This document shows, in pieces, positions 4,491-25,662 of a stretch of DNA of 27,636 nucleotides; position 1 is the stretch's first letter; every line of letters starts with the position of its first letter. The stretch is from a virus (taxonomy: Duplodnaviria > Caudoviricetes). The translations under genes were made by a program, and so were the position numbers. The notes beneath the pieces were generated by a model. The model saw only the letters and a program-made list of their open reading frames with translations. It made no database searches and was not told the origin of the DNA. Location of the stretch: positions 1 through 27,636 of IMG/VR virus record IMGVR_UViG_3300025018_000468. One strand, given 5' to 3'.

Positions 4491-4855
4491 CAACGGAGCG
4501 GGCCGACATGCTGGTGTTGTTGGCCCTGCTCCTGGTATTCGCGTGTTGCGCGGAACTTCCGCAGCGAGCTGCGGGCTGGGAGGTTGGCATGGGTCGGGCG
4601 GGTGGTGAGCGGGCGGCGATCGAGGGCGGCCTGACGCTGCGGCAGGTTGCCGAGCAGCTATCGGCCCGGCTCGGGTTCGAGGTGACGCCGCAGCAGGTGC
4701 ATTATCTGGCGAAGCGGAAGGGCGCGGTGACGGTCGGCCGGACGGCGATCACCGTGCCGCGGACGGTGGAAGTGGACGCGATCGCCCCGGGCGATCTGGA
4801 CACGCTGGAAGCGGCGGCGCGAGTGGCCCTTCGACTGGCTCAGGACATGCCTTGA
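4487..4855 (+). CDS. Putative HTH regulator (possible late-gene regulator); alternative start at 4589
   Basis: ATGA overlap with the upstream stop; LTLRQVAEQLSARLGFEVTPQQVHYLAKR looks like an HTH; last gene before the lysis promoter, where Mu C/Mor-type regulators lie. Confidence 0.55.
   Translation: MTTERADMLVLLALLLVFACCAELPQRAAGWEVGMGRAGGERAAIEGGLTLRQVAEQLSARLGFEVTPQQVHYLAKRKGAVTVGRTAITVPRTVEVDAIAPGDLDTLEAAARVALRLAQDMP
4826..4851 (+). repeat. Micro-insert family A, copy 1 (23 nt)
   Basis: gcc-cttcgactggctcaggacat-gcc. Confidence 0.8.
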
Positions 4856-4880
4856 CGACCGGCGGCGACTAGGCTAGGCT
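4852..4880 (+). promoter_or_regulatory. Sigma70-type promoter of the lysis/packaging operon
   Basis: TTGACG-17 bp-TAGGCT, upstream of the duplicated hairpin leader. Confidence 0.65.
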
Positions 4881-4888
4881 GAGGGCGT

Positions 4889-4943
4889 GCTGCGCGAAGG
4901 GCGCGGCGGTACCGTAAGGTGCTGCCGCGCCCTTCGTCGTTTT
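4889..4943 (+). promoter_or_regulatory. Conserved leader hairpin/attenuator-like element, copy 1
   Basis: 19-bp stem 4895-4936 with two G-U pairs and a GUAA loop, followed by UCGUUUU; 51/53 nt identical to 13312-13364. Confidence 0.8.
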
Positions 4944-5006
4944 GGGCCGGCGGCCCTCGTGGCGGTCAGGGCGCGCCGTTGGCAGCGCCCCTACGGGAGG
5001 ATCGAC

Positions 5007-5255
5007 ATGCCGATGACCTGGGGCGATGTGGCGGGGCGGGCGTATCCCGACGTGGTGACCGTCAAGCAGGTGTTGTTCGAGAAGAAGATCCTGTTCTTCC
5101 GTCTGACCATCGTGCTGGCCCTGGTGGTCGCCGAGATCGACGGCAAGATTTGCGGTTACGCCAGCGAGGCCAACCAGCCCGTCGGCTCGCCGATGGTGGT
5201 GGCCTTCGGCCCGGCGGCGGCCCGCCAGGAGCTGTCCCGGCGGATCGGGATCTAG
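5007..5255 (+). CDS. Hypothetical protein, first gene of the late operon (82 aa)
   Basis: GGGAGG RBS at 4995-5000, ATG 5007; one hydrophobic stretch. Confidence 0.7.
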   Translation: MPMTWGDVAGRAYPDVVTVKQVLFEKKILFFRLTIVLALVVAEIDGKICGYASEANQPVGSPMVVAFGPAAARQELSRRIGI

Positions 5256-5260
5256 CCGTT

Positions 5261-5325
5261 GGTTGCAGGTTGCGGGTTGCAGGTTAGAACGGCCGTTGGC
5301 AACCCGCAACCATTAACCCGCAACC
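5261..5325. repeat. Inverted heptamer-array hairpin (family E), copy 1
   Basis: (GGTTGCR)n ... (GCAACCY)n; intergenic, followed by GGGAG RBS. Confidence 0.85.
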
Positions 5326-5336
5326 GGGAGTTCGCG

Positions 5337-5987
5337 ATGACCTGGTCGGCGATCGGGGCGATCTGGAAGAACTGGGTGCTGGCGGTGGCCAGCGCACTCG
5401 GCGTGGCGCTGACGCAGTACTGGAACGGCGCGCCGAACCTGCTGCGGATCGCGGCGTATACGCTCGGACCGCTGCTGGTGATCGAGGCGCTGTCGGCGTC
5501 GTGGATGCAGAAGGCGGCGCGACGGAAAATGGCGGCGCTGGGGCTGGAGCTGCCGACCGACGTGCGGATTCTGCCCGCCGCCATCATGGACGCTCAGGAG
5601 GAGTGCAACGCCGCTCTGCGACAGCGGTACGGCGTGGAGGTCTACCCCGGCGACACCTGGCACCGGGCCGGATTGCGGTTCGGCATGACGTTCCTGCTGA
5701 TCTGCCTGGCCGGCGCCGTGGACATGATCCTCGGCACCCGGCACATGACGGTCTTGTGGGTGCTGTTGTGGGGCACCAGCGGACACGCACGGGGGACGCT
5801 GCGACACCTGGAGGTGATCGCGAAGCTGGCCCACATGAAGCTGCCGATCTTCCCTGATGACCGGATGGAGCGGCTGAACGCGTTGACGCCGCCGGAGGCC
5901 GCGGCGGCGGCGGACGTTGCCCGCGCCGTTGGCAGCGCCCCGACGGTGGCGGACGGTAGTGGCGCCGCGCCGACTGTTGAGGAGTGA
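5337..5987 (+). CDS. Holin-like multi-pass membrane protein
   Basis: About 4 hydrophobic segments; upstream of the peptidoglycan hydrolase. Confidence 0.6.
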   Translation: MTWSAIGAIWKNWVLAVASALGVALTQYWNGAPNLLRIAAYTLGPLLVIEALSASWMQKAARRKMAALGLELPTDVRILPAAIMDAQEECNAALRQRYGVEVYPGDTWHRAGLRFGMTFLLICLAGAVDMILGTRHMTVLWVLLWGTSGHARGTLRHLEVIAKLAHMKLPIFPDDRMERLNALTPPEAAAAADVARAVGSAPTVADGSGAAPTVEE

Positions 5988-5988
5988 C

Positions 5989-6081
5989 ATGGTGGTACCC
6001 GTGGCGACGCTGCGGCGGTCGCGGTTGCTGCCGGTGCTGGTGGCGCTGGCCTACGCCTACGTTTTGTGGCGCTGGAGGTAG
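5989..6081 (+). CDS. 30-aa cationic single-TM peptide (absent from the ORF track)
   Basis: GAGGAG RBS; MVVPVATLRRSRLLPVLVALAYAYVLWRWR; exactly fills the gap between the holin stop and endolysin start. Confidence 0.6.
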   Translation: MVVPVATLRRSRLLPVLVALAYAYVLWRWR

Positions 6082-6083
6082 TT

Positions 6084-6656
6084 ATGAATCGCAGTTTGGC
6101 AACGCTGGCGACGCGGCGCGCGGCGGACGGGATCGGGCCGCAGCAGGGCAAGATGTGCCAGATGTGGGTACGCCTGACGGTCCAGGCGTTGTATGGGTCG
6201 CGTTGGGACACGTGGCTCTGGAAGCCGTCGGCGCGGGCGGCCGGGCTGGCGTTCGAGCGGGCGTTCCGGGGCGGCGAGATGTCCCGCGGGTTGCCCGAGG
6301 GCGTCGAGGTGCTCCGGACCAGCCATGTGGGCGATACCCGGCTCGGCGACATCCTGTACCGCACCGGCGGCTCCGATCCGTTCGGCCACGTGATGATCCG
6401 GGTGGAGGCGAACCGCGTCGCGGAGAACAGCACGACAGCGGTGGGCCGAACCCACGGCGCGGTCGGCTTCCGGCCGCTGGCCAGCGTGAAGTTCGACCTG
6501 GTGGTTCGGCTGCCGGACCCGGCGATCGAGCGCGCCGCGCCGTCGCCCCTGGAGCTGCTCGGGGAGTGCTACGCCGAGGCGGCGGGTGACACGGAGATGG
6601 TCGGGGCGCTGAACCGCTTCCGGTGGCATCCCGACGTCGCGGGCTGGCTGGAGTAG
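6084..6656 (+). CDS. Endolysin, CHAP/NlpC-P60-like Cys-His peptidase
   Basis: GKMCQMWVR (Cys), GDILY, FGHVMI (His), ENS; GGAGG RBS before ATG 6084. Confidence 0.7.
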   Translation: MNRSLATLATRRAADGIGPQQGKMCQMWVRLTVQALYGSRWDTWLWKPSARAAGLAFERAFRGGEMSRGLPEGVEVLRTSHVGDTRLGDILYRTGGSDPFGHVMIRVEANRVAENSTTAVGRTHGAVGFRPLASVKFDLVVRLPDPAIERAAPSPLELLGECYAEAAGDTEMVGALNRFRWHPDVAGWLE

Positions 6657-6659
6657 CCG

Positions 6660-7364
6660 ATGGCCAGCCTGCTCAGATCGCTGTACCAGAATCCGCTGCT
6701 GCCGACGCCGCACTGGCAGCCGCGGTGCGAGCTGTGCCGTCTGCGCTATGACAGCCCGGAGGATTACGCCTGGCTGACGCGCCAGTTGACCGGCATGGAG
6801 GATGGTGAGCGCCCCCTGACGCAAGCCCAGATGGCCGCCGAGTTGGAGTGCCGGACCGGCTTGAGCATCACCCAAGCGCAGATCAGCCGGCACAAGACCA
6901 AGCATCTCAACCCGAGCCTGCAGGACGCGATCGAGAGCATGACCGGCCACCTGGTGATGCTCGAACACTTCGCCGGTATGGACGAAGGCGAGATGGCGGT
7001 CGGCTACCTCAAGCTGGCGTTGGCGAAGACTGGGCAACTTCTCAGCGAGGCGGACAACGCGAAGGCGGCGGCGCCGCTGGCCAGCTCGCAGGCGTCCGTG
7101 GCGGCGGTCCTGCTCCGAGCCGAGGGTATCGAGGCGGACGCGGCGCTGAAGAAGGTCGAGGCGCGGCTGGCCACGCTACGGGAGGAAGAGGCGCAGATCG
7201 ACTACGAGGCCAAATTCGCGGCCTGGGTCCGAGCGCACTACCCGGACCTGGAGCCGCTGCTGGCCGATCCCGAGAAGCTGAAGGCGTTGCTGGCGGTGTT
7301 CAAGGGCAAGGCCCCTTCAACCGGCGCAGCAAGCTGCGCCCCTGGAGGCCCGCCCGATGCCTGA
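6660..7364 (+). CDS. Putative small terminase subunit (Mu gp27-like position)
   Basis: CxxC plus HTH-like ISRH segment and coiled coil; overlaps the large terminase start. Confidence 0.6.
   Translation: MASLLRSLYQNPLLPTPHWQPRCELCRLRYDSPEDYAWLTRQLTGMEDGERPLTQAQMAAELECRTGLSITQAQISRHKTKHLNPSLQDAIESMTGHLVMLEHFAGMDEGEMAVGYLKLALAKTGQLLSEADNAKAAAPLASSQASVAAVLLRAEGIEADAALKKVEARLATLREEEAQIDYEAKFAAWVRAHYPDLEPLLADPEKLKALLAVFKGKAPSTGAASCAPGGPPDA
7323..7340 (+). repeat. CAGCAAGCTG-core hairpin (family F)
   Basis: ggcgcagc-aa-gctgcgcc; related copies at 14544, 17600, 19891 and a degenerate one near 10460. Confidence 0.75.
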
Positions 7365-8772
7365 GCTGGACGCCGCAGTCTTCAGCCGCGTCCGGGCCAC
7401 GCGCGAGGCCGCGCGGCAGGTCGAGTGGAAGTTCGACCTGTACCCGGCGCAGCAGGAGATTGTCAAGGACCTGCACCGCCGGCGGATCGTCGCCTGCGGC
7501 CGGCGGTTCGGGAAGTCGTTCCTGGCCAGCCACGAAGCCGTCGACGAGGCGAACGCGGCGGAAGCGACCGTCATTCTGGCCGCGCCGACCTACAAGACGG
7601 CAAAGCTGGGCGTGTGGGCCTACCTGGTCAACAACCTGGAGCCCCGGTTCCGGAAGGTCCATGAAGGCGACCTGGTCCTCGAGCTGAAGGGCGGCGGCCG
7701 GGTGGTGGTCGGCAGTCTCGACCAGGCCGACAACCTGCGCGGTGCCGGCGCCGGGCTGTGCGGGATCATCATCGAGGAGGCCGCGATGGTGCCGGACTAT
7801 CCGGTGCAGAACGTGCTGCTCCCGATGCTGCTGGACTGCAAAGGCTGGCTGCTGGCGATTTCGACCCCGAAGGGCCGGAGCGGCTGGTTCTACCGCTACG
7901 CGCTGCGGGGGATGTCGGACGATCCGAAGGATGCCGCCTACCGCACCTGGCAGATGCCGACCTGGATCAACCCGACCCTGCCCGACATCGACGAACAGAT
8001 CGACGAGATGCGGAACGAGATGCCGGAGGCCGTGTTCCGCCAGGAGATCGGCGCCGAGTTCACCGACAACGTCGGGGCCGTGTTCCGTGACGTCCAGCTC
8101 GCGGAGCTGGCGGAGCGCCAGGTCGACAAGAAGGGCATGCCGCGGCTGATCGCCGGCGCCGACTATTTCATGGGCATCGACTTCGCGCGGTCGGGCGCTG
8201 ACTACACCTTCCCGATCGTGCTGATGAAGCTGCCCAACAACGACTTGCGGCTGGTGTGGATGGACCGCTGGGGGCGGATCTCCGACGAGGAACAGATCGA
8301 CCGCCTGGCGGCGATCCTGCTCCACTTCCGGCCGCGCCGGACGCTGGCCGAGGCGAACAGTTTCGGGGCGGTGTACTGCTCCTGGATGCAGAGCAAGTAC
8401 AGCATCGAGGTCGAGCTGTTCGACACGAGCGGGGCGTCGAAGGGCCCGTTGGTGATGCAGGCGGCGGCCGCGTTCGAGTTCCACCGCGTGGAGATCTGGC
8501 CGAGCACCGATCCGCTGGGCGGCGTGCTGGTCAACGAGCTACTGAGCTACGAGCGGGGCGTGACCAGCCACGGCAACCCGACCTATTCGGCGCCGCAGGG
8601 CTATCACGACGACGGCGTGATGGCGCTCGCGATGGCGATCCGGGCGGCCGAGGGCGAGCCGGACGGGTCGGAGATCTCGGACAGCTTTGAGCAAGACCTC
8701 GAACAGTACCTCGTGCGGGACACGAATATCGGGCGTCCGGGGCTGTTGAAACGGTTGTTGGGAGGTCGCTGA
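7357..8772 (+). CDS. terL: Terminase large subunit
   Basis: Walker A CGRRFGKS, Walker B IIIEEAA, ISTP motif, nuclease MGIDFA and HDDGVMALA. Confidence 0.95.
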   Translation: MPELDAAVFSRVRATREAARQVEWKFDLYPAQQEIVKDLHRRRIVACGRRFGKSFLASHEAVDEANAAEATVILAAPTYKTAKLGVWAYLVNNLEPRFRKVHEGDLVLELKGGGRVVVGSLDQADNLRGAGAGLCGIIIEEAAMVPDYPVQNVLLPMLLDCKGWLLAISTPKGRSGWFYRYALRGMSDDPKDAAYRTWQMPTWINPTLPDIDEQIDEMRNEMPEAVFRQEIGAEFTDNVGAVFRDVQLAELAERQVDKKGMPRLIAGADYFMGIDFARSGADYTFPIVLMKLPNNDLRLVWMDRWGRISDEEQIDRLAAILLHFRPRRTLAEANSFGAVYCSWMQSKYSIEVELFDTSGASKGPLVMQAAAAFEFHRVEIWPSTDPLGGVLVNELLSYERGVTSHGNPTYSAPQGYHDDGVMALAMAIRAAEGEPDGSEISDSFEQDLEQYLVRDTNIGRPGLLKRLLGGR

Positions 8773-10712
8773 TGGCGCGCACGAATAGCCGGAACCAGGG
8801 CGGGCCAGTCCAGCGTATCGCGCGCGCCCTTCGACAGGGCTCAGGACAGGCCATGCGGTCGTTCGGCGAGATGGTGACCCGGCTGTCCAACGCGGTGTTG
8901 ACCCAAGAGGTCGGCATCCCCGGCGGGACGGTGGAGAACGGCGTCTCGGTGCCGAGCTACAACGCGGAGCTGGCCGGGCGGGCGTGGTTCGAAAAGGTTG
9001 ACGAAATGCTCCTGGCGAGCAGCCAGGCGGCCGTCATCGAGCTATGCGTGACGCTGCCGATCCTCTCGGCCGAGACGACGCTGAAGGGCGGTGACGCGAA
9101 GCTGCGCGGGCAGGTCGAGACCAGCCTGTTCGGCACGAAAGGCATGTCCACGACCTGGCGCGAGACACTCTACAACGCGTGCGGGTCGGCGCTCTACGGC
9201 CAGGCCCCGTTCGAGATCGTTTGGAAAGAGACGGACGAAGGTCTGCTGGTCCGGCGCCTGGCGGACCGCGATCCGGCGAGCATCGAAGAGTACCTCCCGG
9301 CGCCCGACGGCGGGCTGGAGGCCGTGCTGCAGAAGGGTCTCGACCCGGAGACAGGCGACGAGATCGAGATTCTGATCCCGATCGAGAAAATGTTGCTGTT
9401 CCCGTACCGCCTGCGCCGGCGGCAGTACCACGGCCGGAGCATTCTGCGGCCGGCGTATCGGAACTACGAGAGCATCAACATGCTCTGCGGGTTCGCCGAC
9501 ATCGGGCTCGACCACAGCATGGTCGGCGTGCCGATCGGTAAGGCGCCGAAGGACGCCAAGCTGAAGGACCTGGAGGGGTTCCGCTCCCTGTTGTCGGCGA
9601 TCCGCCGTCACGAGGCGTCCGGGCTGGTGATGCCCTACGGCTGGGACCTGGTCAACGGCGTGAAGCTCGGTGGCGACGACCAGATCGGGTTTTTGGACTA
9701 CATCCAGTGGCACGAGGGGTGTTTTCTGCGGGCCGGCCTGTCGAGCTTCATGCAGCTCGGCTCGACCCGCACCGGCACCACGGAGCTGGGTGGCGACCTG
9801 ATGGACTTCTCGATCATGGCCTGGTCCGCCCTGGCGGACATGATCGCCGGGGTCTTCAACCGCCACCTGATCCGGCGGCACTGCGACTACAACGCGGGCC
9901 GCGAGCTGGACGAGAAGGCGTACCCCGAGCTGGAGTTCCAGCCGATCCGCGACGTCTTCGGCTCGCATCAGAACCAGGAGCAGGCCGGCCGGTTCATCGG
10001 CGCGGTGGCCGACGGCAAGGAGCTGTTGCCCGAGGACCCGGAGGAGCGCCAGCAGGCGATGCGCGAGGGCTTGCGGCTGCCGGATGGGGATAGCCGGCGG
10101 GAAGGGGCGCCGATGCCAGGGAACAGGAACGGCAACGACCGCCACAGCTTCGCCGAGGCCGACGTGCAGACCGCCGTGTCACGGGTGAAGGCGGACGGAG
10201 CGGCCGCGCGGGATGAGTGGCAGGCAGAGATGACGCCGCGTCTCGAGGCGCTGCTCAGCAATCTGTTGCGCCAGGTCGACCTCGCCCAGACCTCACCCCC
10301 CGGCCCCCTCTCCGCAGGCGGAGAGGGGGAGTCGATCGATGCGCGGCTGGCCGAGATCGCGCCGAACCGGGCGCTGGTCGATGACCTCGCGACGGGCATC
10401 GCCAGGTTCGTCGCCGGCGTGCGGGTGCAGGCGGCGCTGCGGTATGCCGAGGAGACAGGGGCGCAGCAAGCAGCGCCCCTACAGGACCCGGCGCCGGCGG
10501 CCGCCGAGGTCGCAAAGGGCCGAAATGTCGCGGCTCACCTGGCTGAGAGCACCCGGTTCGCGGTGGTCGGCGCCGCGCTGCGGGGCGAGCCGCTGGGGCA
10601 GCTCGCGTCGGCGTTCGCGAAAGCGGTGGACGTGCGGCTGCGGAACGATCTGCGGGCTGAGGCGAAGACGGCAGTGGACGGGGTCAATGGGGCGCCCAGG
10701 GCCGAGCCGTGA
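8772..10712 (+). CDS. Portal protein (Mu gp29/DUF935-like) with long C-terminal extension
   Basis: YGQAPFEIVW, GRSILRPAY, GVPIGK, FNRHLIR and YPELEF motifs; follows terL with a TGATG overlap. Confidence 0.88.
   Translation: MARTNSRNQGGPVQRIARALRQGSGQAMRSFGEMVTRLSNAVLTQEVGIPGGTVENGVSVPSYNAELAGRAWFEKVDEMLLASSQAAVIELCVTLPILSAETTLKGGDAKLRGQVETSLFGTKGMSTTWRETLYNACGSALYGQAPFEIVWKETDEGLLVRRLADRDPASIEEYLPAPDGGLEAVLQKGLDPETGDEIEILIPIEKMLLFPYRLRRRQYHGRSILRPAYRNYESINMLCGFADIGLDHSMVGVPIGKAPKDAKLKDLEGFRSLLSAIRRHEASGLVMPYGWDLVNGVKLGGDDQIGFLDYIQWHEGCFLRAGLSSFMQLGSTRTGTTELGGDLMDFSIMAWSALADMIAGVFNRHLIRRHCDYNAGRELDEKAYPELEFQPIRDVFGSHQNQEQAGRFIGAVADGKELLPEDPEERQQAMREGLRLPDGDSRREGAPMPGNRNGNDRHSFAEADVQTAVSRVKADGAAARDEWQAEMTPRLEALLSNLLRQVDLAQTSPPGPLSAGGEGESIDARLAEIAPNRALVDDLATGIARFVAGVRVQAALRYAEETGAQQAAPLQDPAPAAAEVAKGRNVAAHLAESTRFAVVGAALRGEPLGQLASAFAKAVDVRLRNDLRAEAKTAVDGVNGAPRAEP
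8826..8852 (+). repeat. Micro-insert family A, copy 2 (24 nt, in-frame in portal)
   Basis: gcc-cttcgacagggctcaggacag-gcc, encodes LRQGSGQA. Confidence 0.85.
10288..10331 (+). repeat. Family D hairpin, in-frame in the portal extension
   Basis: agacctcaccccccggccccctctccgcaggcggagagggggag, encodes TSPPGPLSAGGEGE. Confidence 0.85.
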
Positions 10713-10776
10713 ACGGCCGGCTGGGAAGAGCTAAGGCCGCCCGTTCGACAAGCTCAGGACAGGCCTGCGCGGCCTG
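10701..10776 (+). repeat. Family B copy 2, interrupted by family A copy 3 (10739-10765)
   Basis: Aligns with 3901-3952 once 24 nt are removed; supplies the portal TGA. Confidence 0.85.
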
Positions 10777-10960
10777 GCGCAACCGGAGCGCAAACCGTGT
10801 CACTGGCGACGACGACCCTGAGAAGGTTGAGGCCCCGCCGGCGGTGATCGAGGGCGACGTGACCATCTCCGTCACGACGATCCGGCGGTGGCTGCGTGGT
10901 GAACGGGCGCGGCTCTTCGGGCTGCAGTTCTCGATCGACGTGAACGGAGACGACGCATGA
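10709..10960 (+). CDS. Hypothetical protein; start uncertain, N-terminus repeat-derived
   Basis: GTGA and ATGA overlaps with both neighbours; the C-terminal half has normal codon usage. Confidence 0.45.
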   Translation: MNGRLGRAKAARSTSSGQACAAWRNRSANRVTGDDDPEKVEAPPAVIEGDVTISVTTIRRWLRGERARLFGLQFSIDVNGDDA

Positions 10961-11253
10961 CGCGATCTGAATGGCTGAGGCGCAAGCGCGCCGAGTTCCA
11001 GCCGGTGCTGAGGCCGATCCGGCCGCACGTCCCGATCGAGCCCGGTCCCGAGCACGCGAATTGCCCCTGTACGATCATCCCGATCGACGACGGCATCCCG
11101 ATCGATGATGGCTTCGCCACGGTCACCGCGATCGTCAACGACGTGCTCATCGAGCGGGAACTCCGCGAGATCGCCGTCGCCGCGGCCGTCTACGACGCCT
11201 TCGGCGTGCCGCCCGAGCTGCGCCCTTCGACAGGCTCAGGACAGGGTTGCTGA
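10957..11253 (+). CDS. Small protein with MuF-like HxNCxC motif
   Basis: GGAG RBS; PEHANCPCTIIP; 18-bp tandem duplication IPIDDG x2; ends in family A copy 4 (11222-11246). Confidence 0.6.
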   Translation: MTRSEWLRRKRAEFQPVLRPIRPHVPIEPGPEHANCPCTIIPIDDGIPIDDGFATVTAIVNDVLIERELREIAVAAAVYDAFGVPPELRPSTGSGQGC

Positions 11254-12407: not shown

Positions 12408-12446
12408 GGGAACTCTACGCTCCGCGCCTTCGTTCGGTAGGGTGAA

Positions 12447-13189: not shown

Positions 13190-13205
13190 AGCTGTGGCGG
13201 GGAGG

Positions 13206-13253
13206 AGGGCGCCCACAAGGGGCGCCCGTACGGGCCGGCCTTGTGCCTGCCCC
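13206..13253. repeat. Two adjacent family C half-REPs
   Basis: agggcgcccacaaggggcgcccgtac followed by gggccggccttgtgcctgcccc. Confidence 0.75.
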
Positions 13254-13311: not shown

Positions 13312-13364
13312 GCTGCGCGAAGGGCGCGGCGGTACCGTATGGTGCTGCCGCGCCCTTCGGCGTT
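13312..13364 (+). promoter_or_regulatory. Conserved leader hairpin, copy 2
   Basis: Same 19-bp stem (13318-13359), loop GUAU. Confidence 0.8.
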
Positions 13365-13383: not shown

Positions 13384-14589
13384 GTGGTGGTGCCCGACAC
13401 AGCTCAGATCGCCGTCCAGGCCGCGCAGCCCAGCGCCGGCCGGTTCCGGCAGTTGGTCGTGCCGATCCACCACGAGAACCACCCGGTCTACGGCCCGGTC
13501 GACATCGACCAAGCCGACATCGCCGAATACGCCGCCAACTTCCGGGCCGGCGTGAAGACCTACCACGGGGCCGCGCCGGTCGAGATCGACCACGATGAGA
13601 GCCGCGGCGCCGGCGGGTGGGTCTACCGCGTCTTTGAAGAGCCGGACGGGCTATGGGCCGAAGGCGAGTACACGCCGACCGGCGTCGGCGCGATCGTCGA
13701 GCAGACGTTCCCGTTCATCTCGCCGAACCTCTGGCCGACCTGGACCGACCCGGTCACCGGCCTGACCCACCGCAACGTTTTCGACGGCTTCTCGCTGGTC
13801 ATGCGCCCGGAGTTCCGGAGCCTGCCGCCGGCGACCGTGCAGCACTATCGCGAAGACCCGCACCCGACGGTGATCGTCGTCGGGCACAACCCCACCCCCG
13901 GCCCCTCCCCGCAGGCGGAGAGGGGAGAGGAGAGCGACATCATGGCTGACGAGACGGTCGAGGCGACCATCCCCGCGGAAGCGGTCGAGGAAGGCGCCGT
14001 AGGGGCCGGCCTTGTGCCTGCCCCCGAAGAGGCCGCCCCAGGGCAGGGACAAGCCCAGCCCGTACAGGCCGAGGGCGATCCCGCCGACGGCGACGAGACC
14101 GAGGAGCAGGTCGTCGAGGTCCTGGTTCCGCGCGAGAAGCTGGAGTTCGGCGAGGCGGGCCCGCAGCAGTTCGCCGAGCGGGAGGCGGCGCTGGCGGAGC
14201 GCGAGACGGCGCTGGCGCAGGAGCGGCAGGAGTTCGCCGAGCAGCGCCGGGCCCAGACCCGGCTCCAGTTCAGCGAGCGCGTCGCCGGGCTGAAGTTCGG
14301 CGAGCATCGGTTGGCACCGGCCGGGCGCGAGGCGCTTGCCGACTTGGCTGCGGACATCCACGACGTTGACCCCGCCCTGGCGCAGCGGTTCGGTGAGGCG
14401 CTGAGCGGGCTGCACGCGTACCTCGAAGGCGAGGTTGGGCTGGACCGGCTGAAGCCGAAGCCGGCGGCCGCGGACCCCGAGATGCAGAAGTTCGCCGAGA
14501 CGCACGGGATCGATGACGAGACCATGCAGCAGGCGATGGGACCGAGCCAGCAAGCTGGCTCCAGGGAGAGCACGACATGGCGGCGCTGA
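13384..14589 (+). CDS. Prohead protease/scaffold (Mu gpI/Z-like)
   Basis: EIDHD...AGGWV...GLWA..EYT..G......FPFISP...SLV.RP motifs. ATG 13339 lies inside the leader hairpin, so a GTG at 13384-13390 after AGGGGA is more likely. Confidence 0.85.
   Translation: MVVPDTAQIAVQAAQPSAGRFRQLVVPIHHENHPVYGPVDIDQADIAEYAANFRAGVKTYHGAAPVEIDHDESRGAGGWVYRVFEEPDGLWAEGEYTPTGVGAIVEQTFPFISPNLWPTWTDPVTGLTHRNVFDGFSLVMRPEFRSLPPATVQHYREDPHPTVIVVGHNPTPGPSPQAERGEESDIMADETVEATIPAEAVEEGAVGAGLVPAPEEAAPGQGQAQPVQAEGDPADGDETEEQVVEVLVPREKLEFGEAGPQQFAEREAALAERETALAQERQEFAEQRRAQTRLQFSERVAGLKFGEHRLAPAGREALADLAADIHDVDPALAQRFGEALSGLHAYLEGEVGLDRLKPKPAAADPEMQKFAETHGIDDETMQQAMGPSQQAGSRESTTWRR
13942..14589 (+). CDS. Putative internally initiated scaffold protein (Mu gpZ-like)
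   Basis: In-frame ATG 13942 preceded by GAGGAG; acidic/coiled-coil sequence follows. Confidence 0.6.
   Translation: MADETVEATIPAEAVEEGAVGAGLVPAPEEAAPGQGQAQPVQAEGDPADGDETEEQVVEVLVPREKLEFGEAGPQQFAEREAALAERETALAQERQEFAEQRRAQTRLQFSERVAGLKFGEHRLAPAGREALADLAADIHDVDPALAQRFGEALSGLHAYLEGEVGLDRLKPKPAAADPEMQKFAETHGIDDETMQQAMGPSQQAGSRESTTWRR
13999..14065. repeat. Family C inverted doublet (REPIN-like), in-frame in scaffold
   Basis: gtaggggccggccttgtgcctgccc ... gggcagggacaagcccagcccgtac, encodes VGAGLVPAP...GQGQAQPV. Confidence 0.8.
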
Positions 14590-15408: not shown

Positions 15409-15508
15409 GTAGGGGCGGGGCTCGTCCCCGCCCCGGGGCGACCACGGCGGCGGGACCGGGGCAGGCCCTTCGACGGGGCTCAGGACAGGCTCCAGGCCAG
15501 CCCGTACG
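15409..15508. repeat. Family C inverted doublet; right arm interrupted by family A copy 5 (15462-15490)
   Basis: gtaggggcggggctcgtccccgcccc ... ggggcaggc[24 nt]tccaggccagcccgtac. Confidence 0.8.
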
Positions 15509-16419: not shown

Positions 16420-16499
16420 GGGTTGCGGGTTAGTGGCTGCGGGTTGCGAACGGCAACGGCCCGCCGCGTCCGCAACCCGCAACCCGCAACCTGCAACCG
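16420..16499. repeat. Family E heptamer hairpin, copy 2
   Basis: gggttgc arrays facing cgcaacc arrays, right after the capsid stop. Confidence 0.85.
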
Positions 16500-16963: not shown

Positions 16964-17015
16964 GCCGAGGCGTGAACGCCTGGCTGGCAAGAGCGAAGGC
17001 CGCCTGCGCGGCCTG
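16964..17015 (+). repeat. Family B copy 3
   Basis: gccgaggcgtgaacgcctggctgg...aaggccgcctgcgcggcctg. Confidence 0.85.
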
Positions 17016-17023
17016 GGTACGAC

Positions 17024-17485: not shown

Positions 17486-17618
17486 TGCTCGTCTAGCTTA
17501 GCTAGACGCCGCCGGTTGCGTTTGGAGGGTGCGGCGGCGACGTGACAGACGCTACGGGCGGGGCGGAAACAACAGGAGCGAAGCGGTGGAGTCGAAACTG
17601 CCTCAGCAAGCTGAGGCC

Positions 17619-18497
17619 ATGCCGAAGGTCATGGCGGGAGGGCCGGTGCGGGACCGGGAGTGGAGCATTCCGCTGTGGCTCGGCGGGCTGCTCGATGCCG
17701 ACTATCCGCGGCACCTCCTGACGCTGGCGATCCTGGTCAACGACAGCCAGGACGGGACCTTCGAGGCGTGCCGCTGGTGGGGCGACCTGGCGAAGCGCGA
17801 GGGCTTCGGGCGGGTGGTCATCGCGCGGCAAGATTTCGGGACGCTGGCGGACAACAACCTCCGCAGCGTCGACGACGCCAGGGACTACTCCGCGTTCGCG
17901 AAGGCGCGCCAGGCGTGGATCGGCCTGGCGCGGGACGAGCAGAAGTTTTTCAGCGTGGACAGCGACGTCCAGACCGCGTCGGACACGCTGAGCCGATTGG
18001 TGGCGCTCTCGGAGCAGCACCAGGCGGCGATGTTGGCGGCGGTGCTCCGGAATCACGCGGGGGCGCCGTACCACCACACGAATGTGATGCACTGGCGGGA
18101 CAACGGCGAGGGGCGGCGCTACCTCGAACACGATTTCTTCGCGTGGGAGCATCCGGACACGCCGGGCGTGCGGCCGTGCGATCTGACCGGCGCCTGCGTG
18201 CTGCTCGATCGCGGATGTTTCGATGACGGCCGCGGGTATCTGTCGGTGCCGGCGTCGCAGATCGCGGCCGAGGGCGAGGATGAGCCCTTCTGCGCGCAGC
18301 TCCGGGCGGCCGGGCTGCAGCCGCATTTCGCGCCGTCGGTGCGGGTGACGCACTGGATGGAGCCGCCGGCGGACCTGCGGTACGTGCAGCGTGCGGATTG
18401 GCACCGGCGGCAGGCAGCGTGGCATGCGCACGCGGCGGAGACGGGGCAGGCACAAGGCCAGCCCCTACGGGAGGCTGACGATGGCGAAGCGGAGTGA
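17619..18497 (+). CDS. GT-A fold (family 2-like) glycosyltransferase
   Basis: PVRDR, NDSQDGT, DxD in FSVDSDV, TGACVLL, GEDEPFC, terminal H; ATG 17619 is the likely start. Confidence 0.85.
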   Translation: MPKVMAGGPVRDREWSIPLWLGGLLDADYPRHLLTLAILVNDSQDGTFEACRWWGDLAKREGFGRVVIARQDFGTLADNNLRSVDDARDYSAFAKARQAWIGLARDEQKFFSVDSDVQTASDTLSRLVALSEQHQAAMLAAVLRNHAGAPYHHTNVMHWRDNGEGRRYLEHDFFAWEHPDTPGVRPCDLTGACVLLDRGCFDDGRGYLSVPASQIAAEGEDEPFCAQLRAAGLQPHFAPSVRVTHWMEPPADLRYVQRADWHRRQAAWHAHAAETGQAQGQPLREADDGEAE

Positions 18498-18527
18498 CGA
18501 TGTAGGGGCTGGCCTTGTGCCTGCCCC
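18443..18527. repeat. Perfect 26-bp family C inverted pair
   Basis: 18443-18468 is the exact reverse complement of 18502-18527. Confidence 0.9.
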
Positions 18528-19159: not shown

Positions 19160-19163
19160 CGGC

Positions 19164-19228
19164 GGTTACGGGTTGCGAGTTGCAGGTTGCGGATTGCGTG
19201 CGGCCGTTCTAGCGCGCAACCCGCAATC
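19164..19228. repeat. Family E heptamer hairpin, copy 3 (degenerate right arm)
   Basis: ggttacgggttgcgagttgcaggttgcggattgc ... cgcaacccgcaatc. Confidence 0.8.
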
Positions 19229-19250
19229 ATCCAGAACACAGGAGACGCGG

Positions 19251-19802: not shown

Positions 19803-19864
19803 GCCTCTGGCCGCCGTTGTCGAACGCGGCCGTGGCGAAGATGCACGGGTACGAGTTGCGTTGA
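19634..19864 (+). other. -1 programmed frameshift site G GGA AAC (19634-19640) and gpGT-like extension to TGA 19864
   Basis: X XXY YYZ in the correct phase; the -1 frame is open and protein-like (KLARWERLRRMAAV...HGYELR). Confidence 0.75.
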
Positions 19865-19923
19865 ACAGGTTGCGCAAGCAACACGGAACCGACCCAGCAA
19901 GCTGGGTCCATCCCGCTCCTGAG

Positions 19924-19951
19924 CCAGGGCCGCCCGCGAGGGCGGCCCTGG
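19924..19951. other. 12-bp GC hairpin with GCGA loop upstream of the tape measure gene
   Basis: ccagggccgccc-gcga-gggcggccctgg; no U-tract. Confidence 0.6.
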
Positions 19952-19996
19952 TGCTATCTGACACCGGCAACGCGAGCAGCACCGGGTAGGTGAGAC

Positions 19997-22900
19997 ATGG
20001 CGGAGAAGGTCGGCCTGCTGATCGACGTCGACAGCTCGCAAGCCGTCAAGGGCTTGCGGGACACCTCCGCGGCGCTCGACAAAATGCGGCAGAGCGGCTC
20101 GCAGCTCGCGGCGGGGATCAACCCCGCGGCGGCGCGGGTCGACGCCCTGGCCGCGGCACAGAGCAAGGCGCGGGGCTCGGCGTCGGAGCTGGCGGCGTCG
20201 CACCGTGAGCTGGTCGGCGCGGCCCGTGACGCGGCCGGCGGCGTCGGCGCGCTGAACCAGAAACTCGCCAATATGAGCGCGGCGAAGGAGCACGCCCGGG
20301 CGCTGACCGCCGAGGTGGACAAACTCGGCACCTCACTGATCCGCGTCGGCGCGGTGGGCATCGGCGCGATGGGCTTCGCGGTCAAGGAGTCGATGTCGCT
20401 GTCCCGGGCGATGGGGCTGGTCTCGGCCCGGACCCGGGCGAGTTCCGACGAGATGAAGGCGCTGCGTAAGAACGCGCTCGATCTCGGCAACGACAACCGC
20501 TTCACGGCGCTGTCGGCGGCGGATGTCGGGCGGGGCCAGGCGGCGCTGGCGACCGGCGGACTGACGCCGGCGCAGATCGTGGGCGGCGCGGCGGAAGGCG
20601 CGGCGGCGGGGGCGATCGTGGGCGGGACCGAGATGGTCGAGTCCGCGGAGTTGATGATCGATGTCCTGAAGACCTTCCGCCTCCAGGCGGACCAGTCGCT
20701 GTCGGCGATGGACGCCATTTCCGCGGCCGCCAGCGGCTCGGCTACGAACTTCGGCGAGCTGAGCGCTGCGCTGCGGATGGGCGGCGGCGCGGCGCAGGAT
20801 CTGCGCCGGCCGATGCACGAGACGATCGGCACGCTGGCGCTGATGGCCGACCACATGATGCGCGGGTCGGACGCCGGCACGGCCTACAAGACCTTCATGC
20901 TGTCGCTGTCCGGAAACAGCGACCAGGCCAAAGACGCGATGAAGGCCCACAACCTCGAGCTGGCGGACGGCGCTGGCAAGTTCAAGAGCATGTCGACGAT
21001 CGCCGAAGAGCTGAAGACGAAGCTGGGCGGGCTGTCGGAAGCCAACCGCACGGCCGCCCTGAAGCAGATCTTCGGCAACGACGCTTACCGGGTCGCTTCG
21101 GCGCTGATGGACGAGGGCGCGGCGGGGGTCGACAAGTACGAGAAGATGGTCAGCCGGGCGGGCGCGTCGGTGGAGAGCGCGACGCGGCAGCAGGAAGGGC
21201 TGCACGGGGCGATCGACGCGCTGATCAGCACGGCCCAGACTTCCGCCACCGTGTTCGGGAACGAGCTGGCGCCGGCGGTGATCGGCGTGGCCAATGCAGC
21301 CAGCGGCCTGGTCAAGAAGCTAGGCGACGCGGACAGCGGCACGGCTCGCTTTGGACGGACGACCGCCGCCGCGACGTCGGTGTTGCTGGTCGCCGGCGGA
21401 GCCTACTTCAAGGTCAATGCGGCCGTCGTCGCGTACCGGGCCAATCTCGCGATTCTCAGAACGCACACCGACGCGGCGGCGGCCTCTCAAGGCCGGTTGA
21501 ACACCGCGCTGAACGCGGCGAAGTTCGGGGCTGTGGCGATCGCCGCGAGCGGCCTGGTATATATGATCAACGAGGTGGACCGGGCCAACAACCGGGCGCT
21601 TCAGGGGATGGACGACTACAACGACAAGCTCCGCGAGATGGAGGCGCAGGGGTACCTCACCGCTGATGCCTTGAAGCGGCTTTCGGTCGACTCCGCTCAA
21701 CTGCCGACCGGTCTGGACCGCTGGAAGACTGTCTATGGCGAGGCCCTGCTCGACAGCAAGATGCGGGCCTTCGATATCCATCACCCCAGCGCCACAGCGG
21801 CCGAGCGCCAGGCACGGGAGGAGCGCGAACGCGCCGCGCTGCCGAAGTGGACCCAGGGGGCGCTGCAGCGGGAGGATTACGAGCAACGTAAGTTCGCCGA
21901 GCCCACTTTGTTGAGCGCCGCCGAGCGAGCCGCGCTGAAGAAGCAGCGGGAGGATGCAAAGGCTGGTCAGGGGAGGCTGCCTGCCGACTTAGAGAAGGCG
22001 TTGTCCGGCCTCGGCGGCGACGGGAAGTCGGGCGGCGGTTCGGCCGCCGCGAAGAAGCAGAAGACGGCGGCGGAGCTGCAGGCCGAGGCCGACGAGAAGC
22101 TGCTGAAGGCGAAGCAGGAACAGCTCGCGGCGGTCGACGCACAGCTCCGGATCATCAAGGCCGGCGGTGCGGCCGCTGCGGAGCAGACCAACAAGACCCA
22201 GGCCGCGGCGCGGATCGCCGGCGACGCGGTCGAGTCCGGCCGGGTGTTCAACAAGAAGCAGCTTCAATGCGCCGAAGCGGTCAGCACGATCTACAAAGAG
22301 GCCGGCGTGCTGAGCCAGGTATACACCGTCACGACGCAGGCCAGCAAGGCGATGCTGGAGCATCCTGACCGCTTCCAACGGCTGTCTCCCGGCGCGGCGC
22401 TGCGGCCCGGCGATTACGTCGCGAAGCCGTACAAGTCGGGCGTCGGTGCGTTCAGCGGCGACGCCGGCTGGCACGCGATGATGGTCACGGATCAGGGCAA
22501 GGTGGCCGGGGCCCCGAACGCAGGATCGACGTTCCAGAACCAGGGCAGTCAGAGCAAGCTACCGTCCGGCTGGGTCGGCTTCCGGCCGAAGAGCGGCGCA
22601 GCCGGTGGTGACACCGCTGGGCTTGAAGCGCAGAAGAAACGGCTCGAAGACGACATCGCGGGGCTGCAAGGCGGCGCGGCCAGCCTGCAGTTGCAGGCGG
22701 AGCGGGCGGAGTCGGCCGCGAAGGCGCAGCAGGAAGCCAGCGAAGCGGCGAAGCAGGCCGCGGACGAAGCCAAGAAGGCAGCCGAGGAACAGCGCCAGGC
22801 GCAGATCGATAAGATTCAGCGCGAAGGCGCGGGCAAGATGGTCCGGGCCGAGGCCGGGATCTGGCAAGCCGAGCAAGGCCGTTCGCTGGCCGGTCAGGGC

Positions 22901-23599
22901 CAGCAAAGCCAAGCGTTCCAGGAGGTTATTGCGGCCCACGAGGCGTTCTGGGCCGCGCGCGAGGAAACCGCCCGGGCGCTGGCCGCGATCACCGGCGACA
23001 CGACGGAGCTAGAGCGCACGCAGCTTGAGACCGAGCGGGAGCGCAGCCAGCTGCTCGACGACGAGATCGCGAAGCAGCGGGCGATCCGCGAGGAGAAGCG
23101 CCGGCAGCGGGAGGAGGCGGAGAAACAGGCGAAGGAGGCGCGGCTGCAGAAGAGTGGCGACGCCGCAACGCTGGCGGACATCATGGCCGAGCGGGCGAAG
23201 ATCCAGGGGGCCTCGGCGCAGACGCAGGCGGCGCTGGAGAAGAAGCAGCAGGGCCTGCAGCTCCGGCACGCCGCGGAGCTGGCCAGGCAGGGCCAGGTGG
23301 TCGAGGCCGAGCGCATCCGGAACGAGGTCCTCCGGGAGCAGATGGAGGGCAGCAAGGCTGGCAAAGACGCGCTCAAGGAGGCGGTGATCGGCGGCGATAT
23401 GGGCCGCATCTCCGACATCCTGCAGCAGGCTCGGCGCACCGGCGGCCCTTCGGCAGGCTCAGGACAGGGCGACGACGATCCGGTGGCGTACGCGATCCGC
23501 AACGGGCGCTCGCAGCAGCCGCGGATCATCGCCGGAGCGGTGGACGAGCGGCTGCGGCGCGAGGCGCTGGAGACCGCGCGGCTGATCGAGGATTCCTGA
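19997..23599 (+). CDS. Tape measure protein with internal Cys/His peptidase-like domain
   Basis: 1200 aa, Ala-rich; GSDAGTAYKT and LKQIFG motifs; QCAEAVS...PGDYV...WHAMMV; contains family A copy 6 (23444-23470). Confidence 0.92.
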   Translation: MAEKVGLLIDVDSSQAVKGLRDTSAALDKMRQSGSQLAAGINPAAARVDALAAAQSKARGSASELAASHRELVGAARDAAGGVGALNQKLANMSAAKEHARALTAEVDKLGTSLIRVGAVGIGAMGFAVKESMSLSRAMGLVSARTRASSDEMKALRKNALDLGNDNRFTALSAADVGRGQAALATGGLTPAQIVGGAAEGAAAGAIVGGTEMVESAELMIDVLKTFRLQADQSLSAMDAISAAASGSATNFGELSAALRMGGGAAQDLRRPMHETIGTLALMADHMMRGSDAGTAYKTFMLSLSGNSDQAKDAMKAHNLELADGAGKFKSMSTIAEELKTKLGGLSEANRTAALKQIFGNDAYRVASALMDEGAAGVDKYEKMVSRAGASVESATRQQEGLHGAIDALISTAQTSATVFGNELAPAVIGVANAASGLVKKLGDADSGTARFGRTTAAATSVLLVAGGAYFKVNAAVVAYRANLAILRTHTDAAAASQGRLNTALNAAKFGAVAIAASGLVYMINEVDRANNRALQGMDDYNDKLREMEAQGYLTADALKRLSVDSAQLPTGLDRWKTVYGEALLDSKMRAFDIHHPSATAAERQAREERERAALPKWTQGALQREDYEQRKFAEPTLLSAAERAALKKQREDAKAGQGRLPADLEKALSGLGGDGKSGGGSAAAKKQKTAAELQAEADEKLLKAKQEQLAAVDAQLRIIKAGGAAAAEQTNKTQAAARIAGDAVESGRVFNKKQLQCAEAVSTIYKEAGVLSQVYTVTTQASKAMLEHPDRFQRLSPGAALRPGDYVAKPYKSGVGAFSGDAGWHAMMVTDQGKVAGAPNAGSTFQNQGSQSKLPSGWVGFRPKSGAAGGDTAGLEAQKKRLEDDIAGLQGGAASLQLQAERAESAAKAQQEASEAAKQAADEAKKAAEEQRQAQIDKIQREGAGKMVRAEAGIWQAEQGRSLAGQGQQSQAFQEVIAAHEAFWAAREETARALAAITGDTTELERTQLETERERSQLLDDEIAKQRAIREEKRRQREEAEKQAKEARLQKSGDAATLADIMAERAKIQGASAQTQAALEKKQQGLQLRHAAELARQGQVVEAERIRNEVLREQMEGSKAGKDALKEAVIGGDMGRISDILQQARRTGGPSAGSGQGDDDPVAYAIRNGRSQQPRIIAGAVDERLRREALETARLIEDS

Positions 23600-25662
23600 T
23601 GCCCGCCCATCAGCTCTGGCTCAAGGTGCCGCGCAACGTGGTTTTCGAGCGCGGGTTCGGCATTCAGCACAAGCCGGGCGACGTGAAGGACGACCTTTCC
23701 GGCGCCGCGCATAGCATCGATCCGCTGACAGGGTTCGCCTGCCCGAAGGTCACCTGGAGCGCCGAGGACCCGCTGAATTGGAGCCTGTCGGGCGATCCCG
23801 TGGCGGACTACGTCTACGGCACGGTGCCGACGACGACGAAGCGGTGGCCGATCCATACGGCCGAGGGGGAGTTCACGGCCACGTCGGCGACGGAGCTGGC
23901 GGCAGGTCACGGCTTCTTCTTCTCGTTTCTGATCTGGCAGGCCCCTTCGACAGGCTCAGGACAAGCGCGGGAGATCCGGGTCAAGTTCGGCGGCGGGTTC
24001 ACGCTGAAGCTGTCAGACGGCGTGGCCGAGCTGCTGCGTGGTGATGGCGAGGCCGCCGAGACGATCGGGTTCCAGAGCTTCTGGCCCCAGGAGGAGTGGT
24101 TCGGCCGGTTCCACACGCTGTACGTCTACAACATCGGCACGGCGGTGGCGGTGCGGCGGCTCGGGGACGCGGTGCGGGAGACCGGCATCCTGGCGTTCGA
24201 CGAGGCCGCGGGCGACCGGTCACCGAAGTTCGCGCTGCAAGCGGCGAAAGTCAGCATCGAATCGACGGGGCACGTCGCGGTGTTCCTCGCGCCGGAACGA
24301 CACGATACGACGCTCAGCTTTCAGCACGCGGCGATCCGGATGCCGGAAACCAGCACGCAGGAGCCCGAGGCGTCGTTCCGCTGGATCGCGCCGAACGTGA
24401 CTGGTGAGGAAGAGCCGCCGGCGGAGCCGACGATCACCGTGCTGGACGGCGACGGCAGCAGTCTCGGCGACGCGCCGTACGAGGACTTTCGGTACCAGGT
24501 CGACGCGACGCTGACCTCGGACACCAGCCCGAATCTGTACGTGACCTCGACGCGGGTCTGGTTCCCGCCGTTGACCGGCTCGGATGGCGCGGCGGCGCAG
24601 GACCTGGCGGCGATCGACGGGATCGCGGTGCAGCGGGTGACCGAGAAGCTGTCGCTGGCGGACCAGGACGGCCGGCTCGATTTCGACCTGATCGCGCTGC
24701 GGGGCAGCGTCAGTCCCTACGTGCAGGCCAACATGTTGGGCGCGTGGAAGCCCCGCGGCGTGTTGCGCGCGGCGTTCCTGACCGACCGGCCGACGCTGGG
24801 CTTCCCGTCGCGGACGCTGGAACGGCTGAGCTTCAGCGCCCGGACGCGGTGGAAGGCGTTCGCGACGCAGAAGTGGACCGGCTCGGAGACGTACGGCGGC
24901 AAGCTGTTGGCGGAGGCTTACCGCGACGTGGCGCTGCGGGCCGGTCTGGACGCCTCCGAGGCGGTGATCTACGCCGGCGGGTACCGGCTGCCCGAGCCGG
25001 ACGACGACGGCGACGAGGGGTTGGAGTTCCGAAACGAGCAGAGCATCGCGGACATCCTGACGTACCTGCGCGATCAGTTCGGCGCCGGCGACGTGCTGCG
25101 GTTCCGGCCGGACGGGCTGTTCTACGCCGAGCCGCTGCCGACGGCGCATTCGGGCGTGACGTTCCACTGGTCGACGCCGCAGACCGAGCTGGCCGACATC
25201 CTGGCCGGCACGTCCGACTACCCGCGCGTTCTGCGGGCGAGCTGGGAGGAGGCGCTGTCCGAGGAGGGCTTCGCCAACGAGGTCTTCGTGCTCGGCTACG
25301 ACAAGGCGAAGCGCCCGCTATTGAGCTTCGCGACGGACTGGGACAGCATCAATCGCCCGACGCTGGACCTGATCGGGACGATCAACCCGAACTACGTCGG
25401 GGAGTTTCGCCGGCTGGTGATCATCGACCCGGCGCTGATGCGGCAGGAGGTCGTCAACTGGGTCTGCCGGCAGGTTTTCGAGCGGGTCAGGAAGCTGCGG
25501 ATCTTCGCGAAGTTCGAGGCGATGTACGTCGACACGCTGCTGCCCGGCGCGCTGGTGACGATCGACGGGCGGGGGACGTGGCGGCTGCTTTCGATGGAGA
25601 CGGAGTGGGTCAAGGACGCGCCGGCGGGGCTGTCGAGCTATGAGGCGGAGGCGGTGCTATGA
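23599..25662 (+). CDS. Distal tail/hub-like protein
   Basis: TGATG overlap with the tape measure gene; hub-like C-terminus (LRFRPDG, FANEVFVLG, LLPGALVTI); contains family A copy 7 (23941-23966). Confidence 0.65.
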   Translation: MPAHQLWLKVPRNVVFERGFGIQHKPGDVKDDLSGAAHSIDPLTGFACPKVTWSAEDPLNWSLSGDPVADYVYGTVPTTTKRWPIHTAEGEFTATSATELAAGHGFFFSFLIWQAPSTGSGQAREIRVKFGGGFTLKLSDGVAELLRGDGEAAETIGFQSFWPQEEWFGRFHTLYVYNIGTAVAVRRLGDAVRETGILAFDEAAGDRSPKFALQAAKVSIESTGHVAVFLAPERHDTTLSFQHAAIRMPETSTQEPEASFRWIAPNVTGEEEPPAEPTITVLDGDGSSLGDAPYEDFRYQVDATLTSDTSPNLYVTSTRVWFPPLTGSDGAAAQDLAAIDGIAVQRVTEKLSLADQDGRLDFDLIALRGSVSPYVQANMLGAWKPRGVLRAAFLTDRPTLGFPSRTLERLSFSARTRWKAFATQKWTGSETYGGKLLAEAYRDVALRAGLDASEAVIYAGGYRLPEPDDDGDEGLEFRNEQSIADILTYLRDQFGAGDVLRFRPDGLFYAEPLPTAHSGVTFHWSTPQTELADILAGTSDYPRVLRASWEEALSEEGFANEVFVLGYDKAKRPLLSFATDWDSINRPTLDLIGTINPNYVGEFRRLVIIDPALMRQEVVNWVCRQVFERVRKLRIFAKFEAMYVDTLLPGALVTIDGRGTWRLLSMETEWVKDAPAGLSSYEAEAVL

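Follow-up and report, generated by a model that had tools for sequence, protein, structure and literature searches.

The phage window and its seven copies of the unit

The window analysed here is the whole 27,636-nt IMG/VR record IMGVR_UViG_3300025018_000468. It is a GC-rich (69%) Mu-like phage contig whose annotated genes all lie on the + strand and include a DDE transposase, a transposition ATPase, a terminase, a Mu-type portal, and head and tail genes. A unit of 23–24 nt occurs seven times in it. The comparison of filled and empty alleles supported the proposal of an initial annotation that the unit is a non-autonomous micro-insertion, in frame where it lies in genes. That annotation had missed that the unit is an arm of a widespread hairpin repeat, itself linked with a small GIY-YIG gene.

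The 20-nt core of the unit was searched with tolerance for insertions and deletions. Seven copies with at most two edits each were found at 4829, 8829, 10742, 11225, 15468, 23448, and 23945, all on the + strand. No copy was found on the − strand of the window with up to four edits, confirming the co-orientation and the lack of inverted partners described initially. The chance expectation was 0.0 copies per window with up to three edits (30 order-3 Markov simulations). The bracketing repeats gcc, gcc, gcc, caggc, ggc, and gc were present at six copies as described; none was present at 11222. The copies are listed below, with their state in the related phage contig L042 or in other relatives.

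4826..4851, + strand: unit, net +23 nt, in the last codons of open reading frame (ORF) 4454–4855, shifting the frame of its tail; empty allele in L042
8826..8852, + strand: unit with an extra G in the loop, net +24 nt, read in frame close to the N-terminus of the portal (LRQGSGQA); the portal of L042 has a clean gap of 8 residues here
10739..10765, + strand: unit, net +24 nt, within a family B repeat; intact copies at 3901 and 16964
11222..11245, + strand: unit with the exact consensus core, without bracketing repeat, at the end of unannotated ORF 10957–11253
15462..15490, + strand: non-coding unit that lies in a family C (GTAG-type) repeat, within its right arm; the composite may have arrived already filled
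23444..23470, + strand: unit read in frame close to the C-terminus of the tape measure (PSAGSGQG); net +1 residue compared with the closest relative
23941..23966, + strand: unit in frame in a loop of a 687-residue tail-region protein (PSTGSGQA); absent from 8/8 homologues

Open frames hold six of the seven copies, and two of these ORFs are unannotated. Contigs of one sequencing run, possibly that of the source sample, agreed fully with the window at six of the seven copies, either across the copy or beside it; therefore, an assembly artefact is unlikely. No empty form of any of the seven sites was seen in these contigs, although they cannot exclude one. This was the one run that contained the window, and no RNA run was listed as containing it. 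No empty allele was found for the copy at 11222.

Filled and empty alleles in phage genes

The L042 portal is 61% identical to the window portal and lacks the 8 residues at the insertion site, a net difference of 24 nt. The 4826 site is empty in L042 as well (net 23 nt), with the same junction GGCCTTGACG and a stop at the same codon; its tail reads AALTVPLQ*. The window flanks without the 23 nt read VALTTGGD*, the tail predicted by the initial annotation. The L042 terminase has its own unit copy with a net gain of 5 residues, and the window terminase has none. Since L042 is thus reciprocal to the window, filled and empty phage alleles exist. The genes and repeats concerned are as follows.

8772..10712, + strand: Mu-type portal gene, hosts one copy
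19997..23599, + strand: tape-measure gene, hosts one copy
23599..25662, + strand: gene after the tape measure, without family match, hosts one copy; "hub" is the label of the initial annotation
3901..3957, + strand: family B repeat, empty
16964..17020, + strand: family B repeat, empty
18442..18468, + strand: family C right arm without the unit
566..2371, + strand: Mu-type DDE transposase of the phage; context, not mobiliser

The peptides LRQGSGQA, PSAGSGQG, and PSTGSGQA do lie in the portal, tape-measure, and hub frames. A clean gain of 8 residues, which had been claimed for all three genes, was seen in the portal but not in the other two. The hub insertion was absent from all eight homologues, with a net length of 6–7 residues against seven of them and about 2 against one. 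At the tape-measure site, a 79% identical relative (P0012) reads GGGRAGSAG against GGPSAGSGQG, followed by identical sequence, a net difference of +1 residue. Either the unit replaced a stretch that resembled it, or a decayed copy persists in the relative. No relative of the hub or of P0012 turned up in viral contigs, and a metagenome scan gave one distant match. As the DNA of P0012 was not found, this comparison was of protein only.

The copy at 10739 splits a family B repeat with a net gain of 24 nt over the intact copies at 3901 and 16964, as had been stated. The family C arms at 15462 and 18443 had been read as a filled and empty pair; the unit does lie in the arm, but the two arms differ beside the junction and the composite recurs with other flanks. 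In the run mentioned above (X1), one contig has a match to the family C arm with the unit (15444–15506), with other flanks and a further copy downstream; thus, the composite exists outside the phage. Another X1 contig lacks 27 nt at a near-tandem duplication at the end of a protease-like gene (14536–14564), possibly an allele or assembly difference.

Homologous tail-sheath-like genes on eight contigs (L004, L010, L020, L023, L025, L027, L036, and L039) keep the same in-frame copy despite diverged flanks, so some insertions are old and stable. No mobilising enzyme was identified in the window, as stated at the outset. The phage Mu transposase was considered as mobiliser and rejected, since most carriers are chromosomal sites and Mu-type ends are absent.

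At least four other small repeat families were seen in the window. A CCCCCTCTCC hairpin repeat lies at 3116–3157, 10288–10329, and 13885–13926, one copy being in frame in the portal. A 53-nt palindrome lies at 4889–4941 and 13312–13364, family C (GTAG-type) repeats at 13221, 13992, 15402, 18442, and 18495, and GCAACCC heptamer arms at 5261–5325, 16421–16499, and 19163–19226. These families were probably picked up from a repeat-rich host. About 500 nt between the portal and a Mu F-like gene (10709–11253), with two unit copies, have no counterpart in L042.

Distribution of the unit

The 21-mer of the unit was found in 41 viral stretches. The exact 24-mer gave 121 loci in 8 of the 64 parts of a genome collection, and about 1000 stretches were estimated overall. 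By record titles it occurs in at least 10 phyla. Carriers include Chloroflexota, several Proteobacteria classes, former Deltaproteobacteria, Nitrospinota, Actinomycetota, Bacteroidota, Acidobacteriota, Eremiobacterota (WPS-2), Patescibacteria, and Planctomycetota; no Nostocales genome was present by title among the 121 loci. Five carrier genomes had 10–73 matches each at one mismatch, parent hairpins included, and the reversed control gave 0. In even samples, the unit was found in 14 of 120 genomes (Chloroflexota sample) and in 4 of 150 (alphaproteobacterial sample). A two-block strand pattern by chromosome position was not visible by eye in genome G002.

The parent hairpin family and its nuclease gene

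Read on the − strand, the unit is GCCTG-TCCT-GAGCCTGTC-GA-AGG, a member of a hairpin family with a co-varying 5-bp stem. At least 10 complementary 5-bp stems around one loop were found among 450 distinct copies, many of them chosen by the search patterns. The stem variants included GTCCT/AGGAC, GCCCT/AGGGC, GGGCT/AGCCC, ATCCT/AGGAT, GTGCT/AGCAC, and GTGGT/ACCAC, and G·T pairs in the stem are possible on the − strand reading only. The unit itself is tailless, with a 21-nt core, a stem of 5 bp, and an interior of 11 nt (GA...GA). L042 contains parent doublets whose stem, GTCCT/AGGGC, is that of the unit. In the L042 terminase–portal spacer (5030–5340), a parent doublet and two unit-like pieces, the latter nested in a CCCCCTCTCC hairpin, form a mosaic. 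A Citromicrobium copy (L064) was considered as a solo insert and rejected, being the downstream arm of an ordinary inverted doublet. In L323–L413, the parent-tail form was solo in coding-like frames in 9 of 83 cases by a rough filter, and doublets were far commoner (36/83). In L248, about 170 nt upstream of a nuclease gene, parent hairpins contain two insertions of another 24-nt hairpin that has the same RCARGC tail, which suggests a wider class of hairpin-plus-tail inserts.

The parent hairpins bracket, as a head-to-head inverted pair, a distinct group of GIY-YIG genes of about 95 residues. The bracketed proteins match the UPF0213 structures PDB 1zg2 and 1ywl, and no NCBIfam name was found for them. 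In the tree, 31 of 32 rows grouped with UPF0213-like proteins, apart from 11 Ssn-type rows (support 100/100). Ssn-type proteins in the same genomes are bracketed by repetitive extragenic palindromes (REPs) of the CGTC type. UPF0213-like genes without hairpins, including L302, were placed outside the hairpin group after the tree was made.

An automatic scan found a correctly oriented hairpin within about 200 nt of 20 of the 26 hairpin-type genes, and on both sides of 14; more were seen by eye. The same scan gave 0/5 for other, plainer UPF0213-like genes and 21/608 for background windows. A reversed copy also lies beside 8–9 of the 26 genes. At one syntenic intergenic site (L441–L453), the cassette was present in 9 of 13 relatives, in one orientation in three and in the other in six; the remaining four had a CGTC doublet or other DNA instead.

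The nuclease gene was found in 10 of 13 hand-picked carrier genomes. In the even Chloroflexota sample, the unit was present in 3/3 nuclease genomes vs 11/117 without the gene (p 0.001, kinship uncorrected). The corresponding figures for the even alphaproteobacterial sample were 2/14 and 2/136 (p 0.04, kinship uncorrected).

Insertion sites and junctions

The tip of another hairpin repeat is the location of many copies, which are placed there at a GC; the repeat is of the parent family, the CGTC type, the GTAG type, or the unit itself. Copies nested in short parent hairpins with a known empty form had gained 23 nt in 13 of 19 cases and 24 nt in 6, and the +24 events mostly reflect one extra base at the 3′ end.

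Insertions in genes were investigated at 147 non-redundant sites, where 196 frames were long enough and open; the 92 that passed a coding-likeness filter were scanned. A Pfam match was obtained for 30 of them (29/61 sense, 1/31 antisense), 25 in the PSTGSGQ frame; a few of the 30 matches do not span the insert. The host genes include MetRS, PheRS beta, RF3, lipoamide dehydrogenase, YbeY, thiolase, and homoserine dehydrogenase. Altererythrobacter lpdA has two inserts, each net +21 by the DNA of relatives, absent from 25/25 and 22/23 measured relatives; the 23rd relative has its own independent copy in the same loop, net +15. A DUF993 gene gained 21 nt exactly between GGC and GCG, and 11/11 relatives are empty. 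The metG gene (MetRS) contains a parent with a nested unit, net +42, and 14/14 relatives are empty. A 3930-codon gene with RTX calcium-binding repeats (L231, 2102–13894) has four sense copies, three with AT instead of GC at the left.

Insertion of the unit at many unrelated sites is shown by these alleles. Inside genes, only net gains in multiples of three were seen. The constant 24-nt, 8-residue unit it described did not hold: net gains were +3, +15, +21, +23, and +24 nt, and the commonest non-coding event was +23.

An explanation in which nothing moved, the peptides being ancestral linkers or chance convergences of Gly/Ser-rich codons, is almost certainly wrong. The look-alike stretch of the tape-measure relative fits it, as a similar sequence may predate the unit or be a decayed copy. 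However, the same DNA occurs in three reading frames and in non-coding repeats, no copies are expected by chance, and clean empty alleles exist at the portal, 4826, lpdA, DUF993, and MetRS sites. It is already refuted at all tested sites save the tape measure.

The coding copies were 30 sense and 4 antisense, and copies between co-directional genes were 24 and 20 (simple codon model). A strand bias relative to transcription, proposed as a check, thus stood in genes but not between them. One antisense frame of the unit contains a stop. The bias in genes probably reflects selection for the Gly/Ser loop peptide, the simplest reading of a bias confined to genes. Since six of the seven window copies lie in open frames, most of their co-orientation is accounted for; as a property of the mechanism, co-orientation was not borne out by the non-coding copies.

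Three junction types were observed: GC duplicated (+23), insertion between two GCs (+21), and a few bases replaced (+15). Terminal inverted repeats were not found, and duplications of 0–5 nt and replacements of up to 6 nt had no fixed length. The flanking repeats are therefore microhomologies used at both ends, which bears out the initial suspicion that they were not true target duplications.

If an HUH/Y1 transposase, of the REP-associated tyrosine transposase (RAYT) or IS200/IS605 type, produced a single-stranded circle of 23 nt and integrated it, part of these junctions would be explained. A crossover in GC gives +23 with GC duplicated, all six bracketing repeats of the window are substrings of the would-be junction CAGGCC, and tandem copies have a period of 23 (7) or 24 (5). 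The +21 and +15 events, however, need two separate junctions. A Y1 transposase had no match in 4/5 carrier genomes, and the two matches in the fifth have no family hairpin beside them. We regard the circle as improbable.

Proposed origin of the insertions

The best explanation, to which we give an even chance, is that a host nuclease of the UPF0213 type frees one hairpin arm, which repair or replication then pastes in at GC microhomologies. SsnA binds its hairpin, and cuts, only when the DNA is the tagged single strand; the cut falls a few bases upstream of the hairpin (PMC11893778). By analogy, the nuclease would cut a few bases 5′ of the hairpin, in the tag, setting the 5′ end of the unit; the 3′ side would be trimmed back to the stem, setting the 3′ end. 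Capture of the freed single-stranded oligonucleotide would take place at nicks or the tips of hairpins, through a GC at each end. Selection would keep frame-preserving sense copies reading the flexible PSTGSGQ in surface loops, and the phage would be a passenger with copies acquired in its host. We infer every enzymatic step of this release and capture.

Several points weigh against this explanation. GIY-YIG enzymes hydrolyse DNA and, to our knowledge, have no strand-transfer step; therefore, capture needs a second process besides the nuclease. The nuclease was not found in 3 of the 13 hand-picked carriers (G003, G005, and G037), of which G005 is a single-contig 3.6-Mb chromosome with 29 copies. 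It was also not found at E ≤ 1e-20 in 11 of the 14 carriers of the Chloroflexota sample, and 12 of the 14 alphaproteobacterial nuclease genomes lack the exact unit. The co-occurrence tests were made without kinship correction. The unit folded no better than shuffles in standard energy models (z −1.5 to +0.6). One tail variant dominates the solo inserts, which the model does not account for. Length and flank counts are biased to the canonical form, since the search patterns fixed the ends of the unit and miss divergent forms.

Some of these points would suit a process without dedicated enzyme, in which a polymerase that has stalled changes template twice, at GC microhomologies, and so copies one arm of an existing hairpin copy; the nuclease link would then arise because the parent must be present as template. 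The variable microhomologies at the junctions, the hairpin tips as favourite targets, the clustering of copies (two in lpdA, four in the 3930-codon gene), and the carriers without nuclease agree with template switching. However, at both lpdA loci the inserts have a loop and tail unlike those of the parent doublet 400–800 nt upstream, and nested inserts differ from the stem of the enclosing parent; thus, the local copy did not serve as template. The same ends also recur across phyla. Template switching is considered somewhat unlikely.

Spread through RNA, with a processed fragment of a repeat transcript copied or used as primer, is improbable, though slightly less so than the circle. Such a route has reportedly been proposed for the small dispersed repeats of cyanobacteria, which the unit matches in size and behaviour. 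The G·T pairs of the stem are compatible with RNA and the coding copies are sense-biased, but the non-coding copies are unbiased to the transcribed strand (24:20). Rfam gave no match in the window. An all-vs-all comparison of 3273 ORFs from 162 loci found no recurring neighbour gene such as a reverse transcriptase; only orthologous sites clustered. SsnA is inactive on RNA (PMC11893778).

A stronger form of the nuclease explanation is possible, and we put it forward tentatively. UPF0213-type nucleases would excise their own flanking hairpins from single-stranded DNA, and repair would capture the 23–24-nt product at any exposed GC microhomology. This would be an oligonucleotide-sized mobile element without transposase, and by this route one identical sequence would have spread over at least 10 phyla.

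Comparison with known systems

The small dispersed repeats of Nostoc and its relatives, which Elhai et al. are said to have described in 2008, are reportedly cyanobacterial families of about 20–27 nt, dispersed and without known enzyme. They are also said to insert into repeats, into their own copies, and in frame into genes. By this description, the unit is similar in size (21-nt core, net 23–24 nt) and dispersal, and in its presence in other repeats, in its own copies, and in frame in conserved genes. It differs in occurring in at least 10 phyla, in being an arm of a nuclease-bracketing hairpin, and in having a candidate enzyme. Small dispersed repeats are mentioned briefly in PMC2884548 and PMC4390886.

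The account of CGTC REPs by Di Nocera et al. (2013, PMC3733652) describes oriented hairpins with an unpaired 5′ tag, head-to-head doublets, G·T stem pairs, and in-frame gene copies, said to be without dedicated transposase. The unit and its parent share the oriented hairpin, the doublets, the G·T pairs, and the in-frame copies. The definition given there requires an 8–9-bp stem, a 4–5-nt loop, and a CCA tail; the unit, in contrast, lacks a tail, has a stem of 5 bp around an 11-nt interior, and is mostly solo or nested. Regarding the CGTC tag (CGTC, TGTC, or CCTC outside the stem), the TGTC of the unit overlaps its stem, and in some parent variants CCTC precedes an ATCCT stem. Possibly, the CGTC families of Di Nocera et al. 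include the parent repeat.

Ssn is described as a single-domain GIY-YIG gene of about 95 residues between two inverted hairpins that also occur genome-wide (Chenal et al. 2025, PMC11893778). The parent family has the same inverted hairpin–gene–hairpin layout, but its nuclease belongs to the UPF0213 group, sister to the Ssn nucleases (cd10448). The mobility of the Ssn hairpin (NTS/SRM) is raised there as a hypothesis; NTS is rarely intragenic (2%), and the available text describes no single-arm insertion. The published SRM pattern had 0 matches in the window and 0 in the flanks of 29 parsed nuclease loci.

RPE-1 of Rickettsia is several times longer than the unit and is lineage-restricted. The likeness to Rickettsia palindromic elements suggested by the initial annotation was apt for in-frame intragenic insertion in conserved proteins; given the short unit and its many phyla, small dispersed repeats and intragenic REPs are closer. 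Rickettsia repeat DNA is translated in frame as an inserted peptide (summarised in PMC3733652). For REPINs and RAYT, Bertels and Rainey (2011, PMC3116915) describe the doublet as the form that moves and regard singlets as immobile remnants. The unit resembles REPINs as non-autonomous nesting hairpin DNA that probably depends on a host enzyme whose gene the hairpin flanks. Unlike REPINs, the unit singlet has clean empty alleles, and RAYT was not found in 4/5 carriers. The lack of terminal inverted repeats and of a fixed-length target duplication distinguishes it from miniature inverted-repeat transposable elements (MITEs) and insertion-sequence derivatives.

By the features compared, the unit thus lies outside the definitions of CGTC REPs, SRM, MITEs, and REPINs, and it works like small dispersed repeats and intragenic REPs. 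Neither the motif, the peptides, and the UPF0213–hairpin link nor a link between GIY-YIG, REP, and RAYT was found in a literature search that excluded figures, most subscription papers, and the Chenal supplements.

Significance

How repeats of 20–30 nt enter new sites, genes included, has been a question since small dispersed repeats, Rickettsia elements, and CGTC REPs were described. The unit is a tractable case, with a defined 23-nt sequence and clean empty alleles in cultured bacteria (e.g., Altererythrobacter lpdA and Microbacterium metG). It explains a recurring 7–8-residue loop in unrelated proteins. The family of the candidate enzyme has solved structures, with no assigned substrate found, and the nuclease group may add sequence-specific cutters of single-stranded DNA beside Ssn. 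If nuclease release and repair capture are true, the unit would be among the smallest mobile DNAs known, and captured copies would have seeded Gly/Ser loops in essential proteins. The hairpin–nuclease–hairpin cassette would then be the autonomous partner and a second family of site-specific single-stranded DNA nucleases.

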